Of a DNA stretch of 30,612 nucleotides, positions 4,923 through 12,918 are shown one piece after another. Made by a program: the position numbers and the translations under genes. The notes beneath the pieces are model-generated. The model ran no database searches. It had not been told where the DNA came from and saw only the letters and a list, made by a program, of their open reading frames with translations. Position 1 is the first letter of the stretch. Each line of letters begins with the position of its first letter. The DNA is from an uncultured Bifidobacteriaceae bacterium (GTDB lineage Bacteria > Actinomycetota > Thermoleophilia > Miltoncostaeales > Miltoncostaeaceae): the NCBI GenBank assembly GCA_964440285.1, contig CAYTRV010000004.1:1-30612 (forward strand). Reading direction: 5' to 3'.

Positions 4923-6088
4923 ATGGTAGAGGACAACCACGGCGCCTACCTCGACCACGCCGCCGCCACGACAATCGACCCACGGGTGCGCGACGCGATG
5001 GCGCCGTTCATCGACGACGCGTTTGGCAACCCCGAGGGCCTGCACGAGTGGGCGCGAGGCCCGGCCGCTGCCATCGAGCGGGCGCGGTCGCAAGTCGCGG
5101 CGCTGATCGGCGCCGACGCGGACGGGGTCATCTTCACCGCGGGCGACACCGAGGCGCGCAACCTCGCCGTCAAGGGCGCCGCCGCGGCCAACGCCCATGC
5201 GGGCGACCATCTCGTCGTGAGCGCGGTCGATCACCCCGCGACGCTCGCCGCCGCCCGGACCGTGACCCGCGCCACCGGGGCCCTGACGATCGTCGGCGTC
5301 GACGGCGAGGGCCGGATCGACCCGCACCGGCTCGCCGACGCCGTCCGCGACGACACGGTGCTGGTCACCATCGTGCACGGGCAGCCGGAGATCGGCACGG
5401 TGCAGGACGTCCACGCGCTCGTCGCGTCCGTCCGGGCCCGTCGTCGCGACGTGGCCATCCACGTCGACGCAGGAGCGACCGCGGGCCTCGTCCCCGTCGA
5501 CGTCGCCGGCTGGGATTGCGATCTGCTCACCCTCGGCGGCGGCTCGCTCCTGGGTCCGCGGTGGGCGGGAGCGCTGTGGGTGCGGGAGGGCACGCGGCTG
5601 CATCCGCTGATCGAGGGTGGCCTGCAGGAGCGCGGGAAGCGCGGCGGCGCGCACGACACCCCGGGGATCGTCGGCCTCGGTGAGGCCGCACGTATCGCTC
5701 GCGACGAGCTCACCGCCCGCGCCGCCCACATGGGCGACCTCGCCGACCGGCTCATCGAGCGGCTGCTGGCGGTGGCCGACGTCCGGCTGAACGGACCGCG
5801 CCAAGGCCGCATCCCGGGCCACGTGCAGGTGTCGGCGGGATGGGTGGAGGGCGAGACGCTGGTGCTCGCGCTGGCCGCCCGGGGAGTGGCGGCGTCACCC
5901 GGGTCTGCGTGCTCGGCCGCCGGGAAGGCCTCGCCGGTCCTGGAGGCGATCGGTCTCGAAGCGCCGTGGACGCACTCGGCCGTGCTGTTCACGCTCGCCC
6001 CGTCCACCACCACCGCCGACATCGACATCGCCGCCGATGCCTTCGTGGACGCGGTCGCCGCCCTGCGCGCGATGAGCCCGCTCGCTCC

Positions 6089-7535: not shown

Positions 7536-8804
7536 ATGTCGGGTGGTATCTGTGCCGATGACAACAGCATGCTCGGCTCGACGGGACGGTCCCGTCCAAC
7601 CCACGATGCGCTGATTCCGGAGAGCATTCCGGCCTGGAGGCCGACGCTCGATCGTCTTCGGCTGGTCGAGCGGGTTCAGCTCCTTGCGACGATCGTCCTC
7701 GGGGTGGGCGCCCTGCTCCTCGCCGTCGTCATCGCCGTACGAATCGTCGACTCGGTCGAGGACCACCGGCGGACGCTGGAGATCCAGAACGGCATCGAAT
7801 CGATCCGCTACGACGCGCGCGTCATGCAGGTCCGCCAGCTCGAGTCCCGGTACGCCGACACCGGGGGGAGCATCCCGCCCATCGTCGACGAGATCCAGAC
7901 CCTTCGCGACCGCGTCGCGGCTCTTCCCATGCTGTCCGCCCGCTCGAGCGAAGCCGAGCTCCGCCAGCGGCTACTCGACGACCTGGCCGCGTTCGTGGTG
8001 CTCTCGCGTTTCGCGCCCTCCGGGATCCGGGGCGGTACCGCGGAAAGCCGGCGGGGCTACGAGCTCGCCCGGCCCGCGATCAAGCAGATGGAGCAGAATC
8101 TCGACCGGTGGGTCGCCGTCGTGCGCGCGCACACGACGCGGGAACTCGACGCAACCGCGCCACACGTCGACCGTCTCGCGGCCATCCTCGTCGGCACCCT
8201 CGCGGCGCTCATCCTGTTGAGCGTCATCCTCGCCACGATCTTGCACCAGACACGACGGCGCCTGGCCGGCGAGCTCGCCAGCTCGACCGGAGAGCTGGAA
8301 CGTCTTTCCGGAACCGATGCGCTGACCGCCCTGGACAACCGGCGCGCCTTCCGCGCCTATGCGGATGACGCGGTCAGGGCAGCCGCCGCGCTGGAGACGC
8401 CCCTGTGCGTCGCGATCCTCGACATCGACCACTTCAAGACGATCAACGACGCGTACGGACACGACGTCGGCGACCGCACCCTCGTGCGGCTTGCGAAGCT
8501 GCTGACCGCAAGCGCCCCGTCGGGGCATCGCATCGCACGTCTCGGCGGCGAGGAGTTCGGCTGGCTCATGCCGCACACGGACGCACAGGCGGGGACCGAG
8601 TGGATTCAGCGCGCCCACGACGCTTTGGCGGCGAAACCGGTCGAGGGTGCCGGCGTGCTGACGTTCTCCTGCGGAATCGCCGAGCGCGGCGGATCCTCCG
8701 AAATCGAGCACCTCCTGCGCGAGGCCGACGACGCGCTCTACGAAGCCAAGGCCGCCGGCCGCAACCGAACGGTGGTCCGCGCGGCGGTCACGCAGCCCGT
8801 CTGA
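7536..8804 (+). CDS. Membrane-anchored diguanylate cyclase (two TM helices, extracytoplasmic sensor, GGDEF domain)
   Basis: DALTALDNRR, LDIDHFKTINDAYGHDVGD and RLGGEEF. Two hydrophobic segments flank a helical sensor region. Start codon uncertain. Confidence 0.9.
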   Translation: MSGGICADDNSMLGSTGRSRPTHDALIPESIPAWRPTLDRLRLVERVQLLATIVLGVGALLLAVVIAVRIVDSVEDHRRTLEIQNGIESIRYDARVMQVRQLESRYADTGGSIPPIVDEIQTLRDRVAALPMLSARSSEAELRQRLLDDLAAFVVLSRFAPSGIRGGTAESRRGYELARPAIKQMEQNLDRWVAVVRAHTTRELDATAPHVDRLAAILVGTLAALILLSVILATILHQTRRRLAGELASSTGELERLSGTDALTALDNRRAFRAYADDAVRAAAALETPLCVAILDIDHFKTINDAYGHDVGDRTLVRLAKLLTASAPSGHRIARLGGEEFGWLMPHTDAQAGTEWIQRAHDALAAKPVEGAGVLTFSCGIAERGGSSEIEHLLREADDALYEAKAAGRNRTVVRAAVTQPV

Positions 8805-8833
8805 TTCGACCGCCGCACTCGTGTGATGCGTGG

Positions 8834-8847
8834 CGAACGTATGTTCG
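8834..8847. promoter_or_regulatory. LexA SOS box (Gram-positive/actinobacterial CGAAC-N4-GTTCG)
   Basis: CGAAC-GTAT-GTTCG is a perfect palindromic match, immediately upstream of a TATACT -10 element of an Rv2578c-like gene. Confidence 0.85.
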
Positions 8848-8848
8848 C

Positions 8849-8854
8849 TATACT
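8849..8854 (+). promoter_or_regulatory. -10 element (TATACT), leaderless transcript
   Basis: TATACT lies 6 nt before the ATG at 8861; no SD. Confidence 0.65.
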
Positions 8855-8860
8855 GTGGAC

Positions 8861-9919
8861 ATGGCCGACTCCGGGGCCGAGCGACTCCGCTGGCGGTTGA
8901 CCGACGACGATGGCGGTCAACCCGAGCTGTTCGACACGGTCGAAACCGTGCCGGGCACGCGGGAGCTCGCCGGACTCGAGTTCCTCCACGTTCGGGCGAA
9001 GCGCGTCATCAATCGCGTACCGGAGGCGTCGCGCATGCCGTTCAGGCACACCGTGAACCCGTACCGCGGCTGCAGCCACGCCTGCGTGTACTGCTTCGCG
9101 CGACCGACGCACGAGTACCTCAACCTCGACCGCGGCCGCGACTTCGACACCCGCATCGTCGTCAAGGTCAACGCGGTGGAGCGGGTTGAGGCGGAGCTCG
9201 CAGCACCCCGCTGGGGGCGCGAGCTGGTGGCCCTGGGGACCAACACGGATCCCTACCAGCCGTGCGAGGGGCGCTACCGACTGACGGCGGGCATCGTGGC
9301 GGCGCTCACCGCAGCGGGGAACCCGTTCTCGATCGTGACGAAGTCGCCGCTCATCCTCCGCGATCTCGACGTACTCACCGAAGCGGCCGCCCGTGGCCTG
9401 GTACACGTCGACCTGTCCGTCGGGTGCCTCGACCGCGACGTGTGGCGTCTCACCGAGCCGAGCGCTCCGAGCCCCGAGCGGCGGCTGGAGACCGTTGCGG
9501 CACTCAACAGCGCAACGGTCCCCTGCGGTGTCCTCGTCGCGCCGATCCTGCCCGGCATTTCCGACGAGCAAGGGCAGCTCGACCGTCTCGTCCGGGCGTG
9601 CGTGGACGCCGGCGCCCAGTCGATCGCCGCGGTCGCGCTCCATCTTCGGCCAGGCGTGCGGGAGCATTACCTGGGCTGGCTCGCCGGCACCCGACCCGAC
9701 CTCCTGGCCGACCACCTCATCCGCTACCGCGGCGCGTACCTCACCGCCGACGCCCGGCGGGACCTGTCCGCCCGCATCCAGGAGCTGGCCGCCCACCACC
9801 GACGTCGCACGGGGAGCCTGGCCCGACCCACCCGGCACCCCGCGGCAATGCCCGGCCACCGGGCCGAGGCGCCCACTACTGGCCGCGGCGAGCCGCAGCA
9901 ACTGCGATTGATCGAGTAA
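8861..9919 (+). CDS. Rv2578c-family radical SAM protein (SplB-like, DNA-damage inducible)
   Basis: TVNPYRGCSHACVYCFARPTHEYL (CxxxCxxC), GTNTDPYQ and SIVTKS. Start is the ATG at 8861 after the SOS box and -10; the ORF-track start at 8405 is spurious. Confidence 0.9.
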   Translation: MADSGAERLRWRLTDDDGGQPELFDTVETVPGTRELAGLEFLHVRAKRVINRVPEASRMPFRHTVNPYRGCSHACVYCFARPTHEYLNLDRGRDFDTRIVVKVNAVERVEAELAAPRWGRELVALGTNTDPYQPCEGRYRLTAGIVAALTAAGNPFSIVTKSPLILRDLDVLTEAAARGLVHVDLSVGCLDRDVWRLTEPSAPSPERRLETVAALNSATVPCGVLVAPILPGISDEQGQLDRLVRACVDAGAQSIAAVALHLRPGVREHYLGWLAGTRPDLLADHLIRYRGAYLTADARRDLSARIQELAAHHRRRTGSLARPTRHPAAMPGHRAEAPTTGRGEPQQLRLIE

Positions 9920-10004: not shown

Positions 10005-10877
10005 ATGGAACTCGCCCTCCGTCTCATCCTGGCGGCCGTTCTCGTGTGGGCCGGCGCGACCAAGGTGCCGAACGGCGCCCGGTTCACCGATGCGCTCGGC
10101 GATCACGGCGTTCCCCGCAACGCACGCAGACCGCTCGCGGTCCTGCTCGGGTTGACCGAGATCGTGATCGCGGCGGTCGTTGCCTCAGGCGTCGCGAACC
10201 ACGCCGCAGGGATCGCCGTCGCCTGCCTCGGCGGGCTCTTCGCCGTCGCCCTCGCCAGGCTGCGACTCCGGGGCAAGCGGCGAACGAGCTGCGGGTGCTT
10301 TGGTGGGAAGCGCTCCGCGAACACGCTCCTGCTCACCGCGCGCGCCGCGGCGCTGGCCGGCCTGGGGTCGGTGCTCGCCCTCGGGGTCCCCGCGATGAAC
10401 ATCGCCCCGGGCGACTCCTGGCAGGCGGTGGCAATCGTGGGGCTGGCCGGGCTCGTCGGCGCCCTCGCCCTGGCCGTGCTCGCCCTCTACCGGCAGGTCG
10501 GCGTCCTGTCGCTCCGCCTCGGCCCGCGCGCCGCCCTCGAACTCGAGGACGAGGGCCCGCCGATCGGGCAGCCGGCGCCGCTTTTGCCAGAGATCACCCG
10601 TCGCGGATCGGAGCTCGTCGCTTTCGTCTCGCTCGACTGCCGCATGTGCATCGAGATCCTCCCCGGCCTCCGGGCCCTCGCACGAGAGGGCGTGCCGGTG
10701 CATTGGCTGCGTGAAGACAAGGACGGCGACGCCTTCGAACGCTGGGGCGTGCCGGGAACCCCGTTCGTGGTGCACCTGATCGACGGCGTGGTGCGCGCCA
10801 AGGGCCTCGTCAACACGCTCGAGCAGATCGACTGGGTCATCGACCTCGGCATCGAGCGGGATCGACTTGCGGCCTGA
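10005..10877 (+). CDS. MauE/DoxX membrane domain fused to a MauD-like thioredoxin-fold domain
   Basis: The N-half resembles MauE (AGATK...E...SCGCFGG). The C-half has GQPAP, CRMC (CxxC), GTP (cis-Pro loop) and AKGLVNT, as in MauD. Confidence 0.8.
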   Translation: MELALRLILAAVLVWAGATKVPNGARFTDALGDHGVPRNARRPLAVLLGLTEIVIAAVVASGVANHAAGIAVACLGGLFAVALARLRLRGKRRTSCGCFGGKRSANTLLLTARAAALAGLGSVLALGVPAMNIAPGDSWQAVAIVGLAGLVGALALAVLALYRQVGVLSLRLGPRAALELEDEGPPIGQPAPLLPEITRRGSELVAFVSLDCRMCIEILPGLRALAREGVPVHWLREDKDGDAFERWGVPGTPFVVHLIDGVVRAKGLVNTLEQIDWVIDLGIERDRLAA

Positions 10878-11484
10878 CCGGCGCTTCGACGACGCCGGCG
10901 AGCGATTCGCTCACCACCTCGCATCGTCGACAACCCGACGGTCGTTCATCGGAGCGCTCGGCGCGGCGCTGCTCGGACTGACCGCCGCCAAGGCCCACGG
11001 CGGCACGCAGCGACCCGTCCCCGGCACCGAGCGGATCGAGGGAGGGTGGTTCGGGTTCTGCGGCCATTACTGGACGACCGGTTCCTGCAGGGGGCCGTAC
11101 CGGCTGCCACGCGTCGATCGCGAAGGCAAGCCCCTGCGGCCGGAGGACGGCCGCCCGGTCGACGACGCCGGCCGGCTGATCAACGACCTCGGTCAGCCGA
11201 TCGACGACGCCGGCAACCGCCTCCTACAACCCAGCGGGCAGCCATTGCCGAGGACCCCGCGCACCCGGCTCTGCCAGGACGGGGTCCGCGACCGCTACAA
11301 GCTTGACGACGCGGTGCTGCAGGGATCGTGGTACCGGTGCTGCAACGGGCAGATCCGCAAACTCTGGGACTGCTGCTCGGCGAGCCGACGGAGGATCAAC
11401 GGCGACACGTCGGTCCGCGGCTACTGCTACGGCAACCGGAAGGTGTTCTGCGTCGTCTACCTCGACACCGGGGTGCCGTGTTGA
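10867..11484 (+). CDS. Tat-exported Cys-rich protein resembling the methylamine dehydrogenase light chain (MauA-like)
   Basis: TTG start overlapping the upstream gene; twin-arginine signal TRRSFI; 10 Cys in the mature part. GSWYRCC, WDCC, GYCYG and VFCVV align by eye to MauA ASWVASC, YRDCC, IWCFG and YHCTI. Flanked by mauE/D- and mauF-like genes. Confidence 0.62.
   Translation: MRPDRRFDDAGERFAHHLASSTTRRSFIGALGAALLGLTAAKAHGGTQRPVPGTERIEGGWFGFCGHYWTTGSCRGPYRLPRVDREGKPLRPEDGRPVDDAGRLINDLGQPIDDAGNRLLQPSGQPLPRTPRTRLCQDGVRDRYKLDDAVLQGSWYRCCNGQIRKLWDCCSASRRRINGDTSVRGYCYGNRKVFCVVYLDTGVPC
11113..11247 (+). repeat. About six degenerate tandem 7-8 aa repeats (DxxGxP[VIL]-like) within the MauA-like protein
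   Basis: VDREGKPL / PEDGRPV / DDAGRLI / NDLGQPI / DDAGNRL / QPSGQPL. Confidence 0.7.
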
Positions 11485-11541
11485 GGACCGGACCGACCGG
11501 GCGCAGCGCCTCACTCCTTCGACCAGCGTCCGGGTGAGCGA

Positions 11542-12918
11542 ATGCCGCTCGCCGAGCTTGGGATCGCAACGGCGGCGCTGATCGCAGGCGTGTCCGGAGC
11601 GTGGTCACCCTGAGGATTCGCAATGGTTGAGACCCTCACCCCCGCAGGCTGCGGGGGCCGGCGACGACAAGCGGCCGCGATGCTCCTGTTCTCACTCGGA
11701 GCCGTCGGGGCGGCGGCGGGGCTTGGCGGGCTCCTCGGCCTGACCGGTCGAGCCCTCCCCACCAGGTGGGCCCTCGCCCTGGCGGTGACGCTCGCGCTGC
11801 TCGGCGCGCTGCGCGAAGCCGGCATCGTGCGCGTCCCCCTCCCGGATCTGCGACGTCAGGTGCCGGAACGATGGCGACGCGACAAGCCACTCGCGCTGTG
11901 GAGCACCGGATACGGCGCGATCCTGGGTGCCGGCGTCGGGACCTTCCAGCCGGTCGCGACGTTCTGGGTCGCCTGTGCGGGCGCGGCGGCCCTCGGACGC
12001 CCGGCGGTCGCTGCCCTCTGCCTCGCACCGTTCGGCCTCGGGCGGGCGCTGATGGTCGCGTTCCCCGGCGACGATCCGCTGCACCGGCTGGCGGGAGCGC
12101 ACCGCATGCTGCGACCGGTCAACGCCGCGACTCTGCTCGCATTCGCCCTGCTCCTCGCGCCGTCGATCGCATTCGCGGGAGCTCCGGCCCTGCCGACCGG
12201 GCAGCGGGATCCCTCCGTCTCGAAGAACGTGATCGCGTACACCGACGCGATGGACGGCACGACCAACGTCGTGGTGCTGGAGAACGGCGCGGCACCCGTC
12301 GTGTTCTCGGGTGGGCGGCTCCCGGCGTTGAGCGGTGACGTGCTGGCCTACGTCGATGACGCCGGGATTCGCGTCGTCCTCTGGCGCACCGGCCAGGAGG
12401 TCGCCCGCGTCGGTGGAGGCGTCGACAAGCCCGCGCTGTCGGGTCCCCGGCTGGCGTTCGTGGAGACCATCGGCGCACGGAAGCGCCTCGTCGTGCGGAA
12501 CATTGGGACCGGCAGCGTCCGGGTGGTCGCGCGGGCCGGCCCCGCGGTGGACCTCGGGCGCCCGTCCCTTCTGGGGCAGCTCATCGCATGGCACGAGTCC
12601 GGCGGCGACCGCAACCGCCTGCTCCTGCGGTCGCTCACCGGCGGCCCGACACGGATCATCGCGAGCGGATCCCGCTCGGGCCTGCACGCGAATCCGACCC
12701 TGGCGCTCCCCTACATCGCCTGGATCGAGAGCCGTGCGGAGCATTCGGCGGTTCTGCTGCGCAAGCTGCCGAACGGGGCGGTGCGACGCGTCGCGAGCAC
12801 GAGCGGGCCCGTCTTCCACTACTGGAACACCGCGATCGAATCCGGGAGGGTTTGGGTGACCCGCTGGTCCCTCGGGTCGAATCGCTCGAGGATCCTGGCG
12901 TACCGCTGGGCACGATGA
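11542..12918 (+). CDS. MauF-like (DsbD/CcdA-related) membrane protein with probable selenocysteine at codon 24, fused to a C-terminal beta-propeller
   Basis: ATG at 11542 is in frame with ORF 11623-12918 through a single TGA (11611-11613): MPLAELGIATAALIAGVSGAWSP*GFAMVETLTP, matching the WSPCG-type motif of MauF-like proteins. Also RRQVPERW and YGAILGAGVGT. Six P-x-L-S-G-x-x-(L/I)-A-(Y/F/W)-like repeats occur in the C-half. Confidence 0.75.
11611..11657 (+). promoter_or_regulatory. In-frame UGA plus putative bacterial SECIS element
   Basis: UGA, an 11-nt spacer, then GGU-U(bulge)-GAG-ACC-CUC-ACC (11625-11640), the same spacing and bulged-U geometry as the E. coli fdhF SECIS. A second hairpin, CCCGCA-GGC-UGCGGG, follows immediately. 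Confidence 0.65.

Follow-up and report, generated by a model that had tools for sequence, protein, structure and literature searches.

The 30,612-nucleotide (nt) stretch of contig CAYTRV010000004.1 analyzed here (assembly GCA_964440285.1; hereafter the window) likely contains, at positions 11542–12918, a single gene for a selenoprotein of 458 residues. In this reading a UGA codon within the gene is decoded as selenocysteine (Sec), the protein is of the MauF type, and the Sec residue takes part in the redox step proposed below. The gene comprises 458 codons including that for Sec24, which encode a MauF-like membrane domain followed by a C-terminal beta-propeller. Regarding the separate parts of the reading, the decoding of the UGA at 11611–11613 as Sec is very probable on the comparative sequence evidence, and equally high confidence can be placed in the putative membership of the protein in the MauF family. 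All features of the window given below are on the forward strand.

The in-frame TGA and its cysteine counterparts

From the ATG at 11542 the translation runs through MPLAELGIATAALIAGVSGAWSP to the TGA at 11611–11613 and continues through GFAMVETLTPAGCGG in one frame to the stop codon at 12916–12918, as a sequence-only reading of the window had described. The segment upstream of the TGA (11542–11610) is a hydrophobic stretch of 23 codons, the hidden first transmembrane (TM) helix ending in W-S-P. The same reading had expected gene callers to lose this helix, and they do: the mechanical list of open reading frames (ORFs) places the start of the gene at the ATG at 11623 (431 amino acids), and the public records examined are all truncated at Met28 and named either 'hypothetical protein' or 'cytochrome c biogenesis protein CcdA'. 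An exact-sequence look-up of the window protein returned no identical record. The G+C content of the window is about 72%, and the species-level genome loci nearest to it belong to uncultured Thermoleophilia (phylum Actinomycetota).

A protein search found 241 relatives, of which the best 120 were assessed for coverage and the starts of 17 were read. In these best 120 relatives the alignment was confined to the part downstream of the TGA and the N-terminal helix was present in none, and all the 17 inspected proteins start at the Met of MVETLTPAGCG. The genome loci give a different view of the same region. The comparative set consisted of 80 species-level loci of Thermoleophilia (L001–L080), with relatives at 37–77% identity, making 81 sequences together with the window. 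In all 80 loci an in-frame TGA stood between ...AALxAGxSGAWSP and G-[FL]-[AS]-M. A start codon was found 60–84 nt 5' of the TGA in each of the 81 sequences, and in 73 sequences this distance was either 66 or 69 nt. The peptide AALxAGxSGAWSP was kept through synonymous changes, for example from Ser TCN to AGC.

The coding signature continues on both sides of the UGA. The column entropies at the three codon positions were 0.47, 0.20 and 1.02 for the 16 codons before the TGA, and 0.48, 0.03 and 1.41 for the three codons that separate the TGA from the ATG, and this codon-periodic pattern indicates translation straight through the TGA. An arrangement of this kind goes well beyond what chance would produce. 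The internal codon was TGA in all 81 sequences while the terminal stop of the same gene was mixed (TGA 32, TAG 29, TAA 10), which argues that the internal TGA is no genuine stop. Of the long ORFs in these loci 57% end in TGA. Loci L011, L026, L071, L073, L075, L078 and L080 were frameshifted or truncated 3' of the TGA region, with Arg/Pro-rich junk or short ORFs; such frameshifted copies in metagenome-assembled genomes (MAGs) are probably the result of assembly indels rather than pseudogenes.

A profile search of 1.84 billion representative proteins yielded 4305 hits, the best 150 of which were inspected. Forty-seven of these were full-length, having both the N-terminal helix and a W-S-P-C-G motif, and another 54 had a start of the form M-x-[E/D]-T, like the window ORF. 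The nearest cysteine (Cys) forms were P0133 and P0148 (…GAWSPCGFAMIETFTPQMCGS), and the seeming truncation of P0202 proved to be a mis-called Cys form. In the genome loci of the wider family the codon at the Sec position was TGC in 42, TGT in 4 and TGA in 16 cases. The Cys forms were mostly found in Solirubrobacterales, Conexibacter and Thermoleophilales as well as in a sister group of the Sec clade, and only one cysteine, that at the position of Sec24, was invariant across 46 of them. Homologues with Cys aligned to the UGA were thus present among the representatives and in the genome loci, and also in MauF itself. The claim that the UGA stands at the conserved Cys of a MauF-like protein was thereby upheld, as Sec24 aligns with the Cys of TWSPCG in the hhalign comparison. 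The accompanying suggestion to look for Cys or TGA in homologues had a clear outcome: both occur, and the TGA recurs in all genomes of the Sec clade together with a conserved hairpin.

Two other residues near the TGA were also followed through the family. Cys37, encoded by the TGC at 11650–11652 and a candidate selenosulfide partner of Sec24, is invariant within the Sec clade, while distant Cys forms have His, Tyr or other residues at its place (His in many, as in GPTGHTGG). Met28, the annotated start, is kept also in the uninterrupted Cys forms and is consequently an internal residue.

A divergent member of the family (protein P0254, locus L288) reads WSP-TGA-GLSM and lacks Cys37; its TGA lies within approximately 230–330, upstream of the gene annotated at 330–1697. 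Fourteen nt after this UGA starts a hairpin, CGACAC-CGUGC-GUGUCG, the CGUG loop of which resembles the CGUGU loop of the main clade. A TGA with a hairpin of its own in L288 points to Sec in more than one lineage. The Gaiellaceae MAG DATCYR01 contains a Cys-form paralogue (GTWSPCGLSMIETISGP, L317) together with selA (L233), showing that Cys forms exist in Sec-capable genomes. A Cys form with the gene for a ten-cysteine protein (see below) just upstream was found also in the cultured Conexibacter stalactiti KCTC 39840 (L329), a possible genetic model.

Hairpins downstream of the UGA and the selenocysteine machinery

RNAalifold analysis of the 81 sequences produced a single structure, a hairpin at columns 29–47 counted from the U of the UGA, corresponding to positions 11639–11657 of the window (CCCCCGC-AGGCU-GCGGGGG). 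This hairpin, hereafter hairpin 2, also encodes T-P-A-G-C37-G-G, and it is the probable selenocysteine insertion sequence (SECIS). Its stem begins 25 nt and its loop 32 nt after the UGA, and the apical loop contains an invariant G (G37). When folded as seven pairs the stem was 97.5% paired, as against 42–82% with the 3' arm slid; in the window an alternative pairing of 8 bp with a GGC loop can be drawn. Compensatory changes were found at two pairs, 30–46 (UA 68, CG 7, UG 3) and 33–43 (CG 74, GC 2, UG 1), and the covariation score was reached by none of 500 shuffles. Third codon positions within the stem were nearly frozen (Pro CCC, Gly GGG), and GGG would be an unusual Gly codon for a high-GC genome. 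Of the seven pairs in the same register, Sec forms had 6–7 and Cys forms 0–4. A scan for the hairpin motif behind other TGAs in all the loci gathered returned mostly reverse complements of the same element.

The sequence-only reading had proposed another SECIS, an element similar to that of Escherichia coli fdhF with an 11-nt spacer and a bulged U at position 17. The corresponding hairpin (hairpin 1; GGU-U-GAG-ACC-CUC-ACC, 11625–11640) is present in the window, but its pairing across the alignment (87.3%) equalled the shuffled mean, no compensatory change was found, and pair 16–29 was broken in 34 of 79 sequences. Hairpin 1 was rejected as a conserved element on these grounds. Both hairpins of that reading hence exist in the window, and it is the second, mentioned there as following directly, that is conserved.

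The tblastn searches with E. coli SelA, SelB and SelD gave no match in the window or in L001–L080, and the 80 loci included neither sel genes nor tRNAs. Sec machinery was found elsewhere in related genomes. A scan for the high-GC form of the SelA motif around the pyridoxal phosphate-binding lysine led to Gaiellaceae and other Gaiellales loci with selA-selB and tRNA-Sec, and a profile of Gaiellales SelA then led to at least 80 further loci, with selA in 80, selB in 73 and tRNA-Sec in 29 among the matches listed. At least four assemblies, again among the matches listed, hold both the TGA gene and selA-selB: CAVTCK01 (L053 and L259, respectively), JBKPPF01 (L047 and L262), DASPGT01 (L059 and L264) and CAWDJV01 (L052 and L265). 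In two of these four a tRNA-Sec was present within the fetched stretch. The check for selA, selB, selC and selD proposed in that reading concerned the window's own genome; the positive findings are from related MAGs. In the Gaiellaceae locus L257 selD, which is of the Cys type, adjoins selA. With E. coli FdhF as a query no formate dehydrogenase was found in the Gaiellales selA loci.

In one Actinomycetota MAG a tRNA of 96 nt with the anticodon CUA, reported by ARAGORN as 'tRNA-Pyl', adjoins selD and selA (L145:4893–4988, reverse strand). Judged by length and location, this may be a tRNA-Sec reading UAG; Sec recoding of UAG has been reported in some Actinobacteria.

Membrane domain, propeller and neighbouring genes

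Comparison of the family profile by hhalign with Paracoccus MauF, taken from a plasmid-borne mauFBEDA cluster, gave a probability of 98.15% (E-value 6.4e-14) over 165 columns (query columns 12–176). Sec24 was aligned with the Cys of MauF TWSPCGYSS, and the loop PLPxxRRQVPExWR with PYPQRRAQVPHDAR. The features typical of MauF, the motif W-S-P-[C/U]-G and the loop PxPQRRxQVP, were invariant in the family alignments. In the window the part of this polytopic domain downstream of the Sec codon extends from 11614 to 12186 and includes the conserved PxPxxRRQVPExWR loop, as judged from hhalign and the predicted helices. MauF itself has no Pfam or NCBIfam model, and also the window protein had no significant Pfam or NCBIfam match, NCBIfam giving only a weak propeller repeat. 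There was no match to DsbD_TM or DsbD_2 above the gathering score in the family, and none at all for the window protein. The hhalign probability against E. coli DsbD was only 12%, and in this alignment Sec24 falls on the TM1 Cys of FTPCVLPM.

The model of the Cys form P0133 (mean predicted local distance difference test score, pLDDT, 86) shows a helix at residues 2–21, a break at W-S-P, helices at 25–33 and 36–39 and a long TM2, with Cys26 at the start of the short helix 25–33. The N-terminal block of P0133 was modelled at pLDDT 79–91 as part of the bundle, whereas in the model of the truncated protein the first nine residues had pLDDT below 50 and the helices of the membrane part lie within H13–184. 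The confident N-terminal block in the one and the disordered N-terminus in the other indicate that the hidden segment is integral to the fold. Judging from the even number of helices and from the GGRRRQ stretch that follows Cys37, the protein would have its N-terminus outside, with the propeller likewise outside and with Sec24 and Cys37 towards the cytoplasmic leaflet.

The C-terminal part of the protein (12202–12915) was modelled by AlphaFold as a six-bladed beta-propeller of 23 strands at pLDDT above 90, presumably extracytoplasmic. The best Foldseek matches of the modelled protein were to TolB (E-value 5e-10), all the matches listed being proteins that contain beta-propellers, and a profile search of the Protein Data Bank (PDB) also gave TolB (E-value 0.03). 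Identification of the propeller as a fused MauB was rejected, given an hhalign probability of 0.3% and the six-bladed, TolB-like fold.

Two genes immediately precede the selenoprotein gene, which is the last of the three. The first (10005–10877) encodes a MauE–MauD fusion, in which a thioredoxin-fold domain with a CxxC motif is attached to a membrane oxidase of the DsbB type. The MauE domain was recognized by Pfam (E-value 2.4e-18), and the thioredoxin domain (residues 163–280) is 29–35% identical to annotated plasmid MauD. The second (10867–11484) encodes a secreted protein of 205 amino acids, the presumed substrate or partner, with a MauA-like twin-arginine leader and ten invariant cysteines. 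The leader is 43% identical to that of Paracoccus MauA over 37 amino acids (E-value 3e-6; hhalign probability 60%), and the NCBIfam model TTQ_MADH_Lt matches the protein at positions 1–39 only. The mature part has, besides the ten cysteines, the invariant motifs FCGH, WYRCC, RINGD and GYC and a Cys as its last residue, and no relative of it was detected in Pfam or the PDB. A tryptophan tryptophylquinone (TTQ) light chain was rejected as its identity, given that the match covers the leader only and the mature part had no Pfam or PDB hit. The protein is a family of its own, and it may carry cross-links or a protein-derived cofactor.

Of 61 loci of the wider family, 46 have the gene for the ten-cysteine protein directly upstream, and distant members of both the Sec and the Cys form likewise keep the three genes together. 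The GTG at which the selenoprotein gene starts overlaps, in most loci, with the stop codon of this upstream gene (…GTGCTGA…), which suggests translational coupling. The window (11484–11542) and its two closest relatives have a spacer there instead of an overlap, and a motif resembling GGTGA precedes their ATG or GTG start (the loci compared include L003–L011, around position 5920). Neither mauG nor amicyanin was found nearby in the window and the compared loci, nor any Me-amine-dh_L domain or similarity to MauB. The lack of mauG, amicyanin and a recognizable TTQ light-chain domain indicates that the cassette is not a methylamine dehydrogenase system. Of a TTQ gene cluster only MauE, MauD and the MauA-like leader are present, and the MauF homologue here belongs to a different system.

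Upstream of the cassette the window includes a gene for a GGDEF diguanylate cyclase (7536–8804) and a radical SAM gene of the Rv2578c family, listed at 8405–9919 but with its true start probably later. Both were present in the close relative L083 and not in the distant L084.

Decoding, function and alternative explanations

In the mechanism proposed, the UGA would be decoded by way of tRNA-Sec, SelA and SelB, with selenophosphate supplied by SelD and with the in-frame hairpin at 11639–11657 binding SelB as the SECIS. The Sec would replace the sole invariant cysteine of the MauF family, a group of polytopic membrane proteins that distantly resemble DsbD/CcdA, in the kink formed by W-S-P-C-G at the end of TM1. 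MauE was recently shown to replace DsbB and has been proposed as a general DsbB-like oxidase (bioRxiv 10.64898/2026.03.05.709764). With MauE standing in for DsbB, the cassette reads as an oxidase arm (MauE–MauD), a secreted client rich in Cys, and a selenoprotein of the MauF type whose propeller serves for docking. By analogy with DsbB/DsbA, MauE–MauD would form disulfides, and the selenol would be the reactive nucleophile of a membrane thiol/selenol–disulfide exchange. In the Sec clade Sec24 would probably cycle through a selenosulfide with Cys37. While MauE–MauD oxidizes the Cys-rich partner, which would be docked on the propeller, this exchange step could reduce or isomerize that partner or keep hold of it transiently. 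Such an exchange role, with cycling between Sec24 and Cys37 and with the protein as the reductive, isomerizing or holding partner of the MauE–MauD oxidase, is put forward tentatively and with rather less than even confidence. The electron shuttle named in the sequence-only reading was conjectural and found no support in that form: the DsbD-type TM4 Cys is absent and a single Cys/Sec is invariant in the wider family.

A bolder proposal, which we regard as speculative and more probably wrong than right, is that the protein is the catalytic core of an unrecognized maturation system, widespread in Thermoleophilia and of the same stock as the mau genes. The membrane-embedded selenol would in that case carry out the key exchange or cross-linking on the secreted protein rich in Cys (ten) and Trp, possibly building a new protein-derived cofactor. 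If true, the gene would be among the selenoproteins that keep the Sec machinery under selection in Gaiellales and Miltoncostaeales, and it would offer the first mechanistic handle on MauF in the biogenesis of methylamine dehydrogenase.

The UGA could also be explained without Sec. One possibility is a split gene, in which the UGA ends a membrane micropeptide of 23 residues and translation re-initiates at the ATG at 11623, 9 nt downstream, the two products assembling non-covalently. Conservation of Met28, which every gene caller chose as the start, fits with this, and start–stop coupling is common in the cassette, where the upstream stop overlaps the GTG start in most loci. A true stop, however, should drift among TGA, TAG and TAA like the terminal stop and not be TGA in 81 of 81 sequences, and the three codons separating the TGA from the ATG should not be under in-frame protein constraint. 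Met28 is internal in the uninterrupted Cys forms, the codon is aligned exactly with the invariant Cys of the family, and both a conserved hairpin and Sec machinery are present, which makes a split gene very unlikely. Another possibility is SelB-independent read-through, in which a near-cognate tRNA for Trp, Cys or Arg decodes the UGA and the hairpin acts as a stimulant. No other stop codon is as leaky as UGA, read-through can be enhanced by a hairpin on the 3' side, and the Sec machinery is known from related genomes and not from the window's own. The strictly conserved Cys of the homologues is nevertheless the classic Sec/Cys signature, the hairpin stands at the usual position of a bacterial SECIS, and selA-selB occur in at least four MAGs with the gene, tRNA-Sec in two. 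There is also no reason to keep a leaky stop at an essential residue in every lineage when TGC is one substitution away, and read-through of this kind appears as improbable as the split gene. As TGA is one substitution from TGC and some MAG copies are frameshifted elsewhere in the gene, a sequencing error or a pseudogene may also be considered. However, 81 independent assemblies, produced in many studies and on many platforms, have the same TGA, with protein identities of 37–100% and the frames intact on both sides, and the probability of an artefact is negligible.

The main alternative concerns the function and leaves the Sec in place. The Sec/Cys could be a ligand or a covalent carrier in a transporter-like protein, for example for a metal or a cofactor precursor destined for the secreted partner, and not part of a DsbD-type relay. 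The single Cys/Sec that is invariant across the family and the His or Lys at the position of Cys37 (His in many distant members with GPTGHTGG, Lys in MauF) make this the principal competitor, and the sub-threshold DsbD-family scores and the absent TM4 Cys agree with it. The cassette, on the other hand, is built on the thiol–disulfide enzymes MauE and MauD and a ten-Cys substrate, Sec24 is aligned with the redox Cys of TM1 in DsbD, and in most known selenoproteins Sec serves redox chemistry (PMC13188914). We consider the ligand or carrier role somewhat less likely than the exchange role, and far more likely than the explanations that dispense with Sec.

Several observations weigh against Sec decoding and the redox role. 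The 30.6-kb window contains no sel gene and no tRNA (the Rfam scan at gathering thresholds and ARAGORN both found nothing), and no selD was seen in the loci of the four MAGs that hold both the TGA gene and selA-selB. Folded alone, the window sequence is not significantly more stable than its shuffles (z = -1.1), so that it is the comparison among loci that supports hairpin 2; there, covariation is limited to two pairs and all hairpin bases are also under coding constraint. Also the nearest Cys forms L292–L295 keep a hairpin of 6 bp (CGCCGC-acatgt-GCGGCG) 28–46 nt after the TGC, one base off register. Such a hairpin may be the remnant of a former SECIS or may follow from the peptide encoded there (T-P..C-G-G), and its presence means that the complementarity of hairpin 2 may partly come from encoding that peptide. 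As to the redox role, Pfam DsbD_2 hits were obtained in 10 of 24 family members but at 20.3–23.5 bits, below the cut-off of 24.9; when the N-terminal extension was added, the alignment started at profile position 2 instead of 28. The position of the TM4 redox Cys of DsbD is occupied by a variable residue, so that the pair of cysteines in TM1 and TM4 is lacking, and Cys37 is not conserved outside the Sec clade.

An inventory of 2026 comprises 119 families of prokaryotic selenoproteins (PMC13188914), and Table 1 of that inventory has no entry corresponding to the Sec-containing MauF family. No NCBIfam selenoprotein model matched the window protein at an E-value of 0.01 or below, and none of the papers returned by a literature search named MauF together with selenocysteine or selenoprotein. 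The earlier suggestion of an unrecognized selenoprotein family hence agrees with both the inventory and NCBIfam. The recoding mechanism is ordinary; new are the family, its clade-wide fixation as Sec and the pointer to the active residue of MauF. The finding extends the list of selenoproteins by a family in which Sec is fixed in at least 80 species-level genomes of common soil Actinomycetota and which is invisible in the databases, where TM1 and the active-site residue are missing from downstream analyses and structure predictions because the records are truncated at the 5' end.

MauF genes, familiar from mau clusters since the 1990s, are not known to have been given a biochemical role. Alternation between Sec and Cys singles out the WSPCG residue as the functional centre of the family, and this residue is probably catalytic. 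MauF is here also tied to MauE and MauD outside methylamine metabolism, and this link, together with the general DsbB-like role proposed for MauE, points to a self-contained module that oxidizes and proofreads a Cys-rich secreted protein.

In comparison with MauF of the Paracoccus and Methylobacterium mau clusters, the window protein shares the polytopic domain with W-S-P-C-G at the end of TM1 and the PxPQRRxQVP loop, and in both cases the neighbours are mauE, mauD and a gene for a small subunit that carries the same unusual leader. The two differ in that MauF has Cys where the window protein has Sec, has Lys where the Sec clade has Cys37, and lacks a fused propeller, MauB being a separate and unrelated one. 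DsbD/CcdA proteins similarly have a kinked TM1 with a Pro-Cys motif and an extracytoplasmic domain after the membrane core, but the outward domain of DsbD has a thioredoxin fold while here it is a propeller devoid of Cys. The E. coli fdhF SECIS is likewise an in-frame hairpin just 3' of the UGA, but has an 11-nt spacer, a bulged U and the loop GGUC, whereas here the stem and loop begin 25 and 32 nt after the UGA, no bulged U is conserved and the 5-nt loop is CGUGU, CGGGU or AGGCU. The distance of 25 nt, unlike that of the fdhF paradigm, makes the family a useful training case for predictors of SECIS elements and selenoproteins. Among known selenoproteins, TsoB (rhodanese/DsbD fusion-like, NF045694), the MerT-like mercuric transport protein, the SO_0444 family transporter and YeeE/YedE also have Sec in or near a TM segment of a transporter-like protein and were found by comparative genomics (PMC13188914, Table 1), but they have other folds and other motifs (UxxxxU, C/SxxU, UxC and GUxSG).

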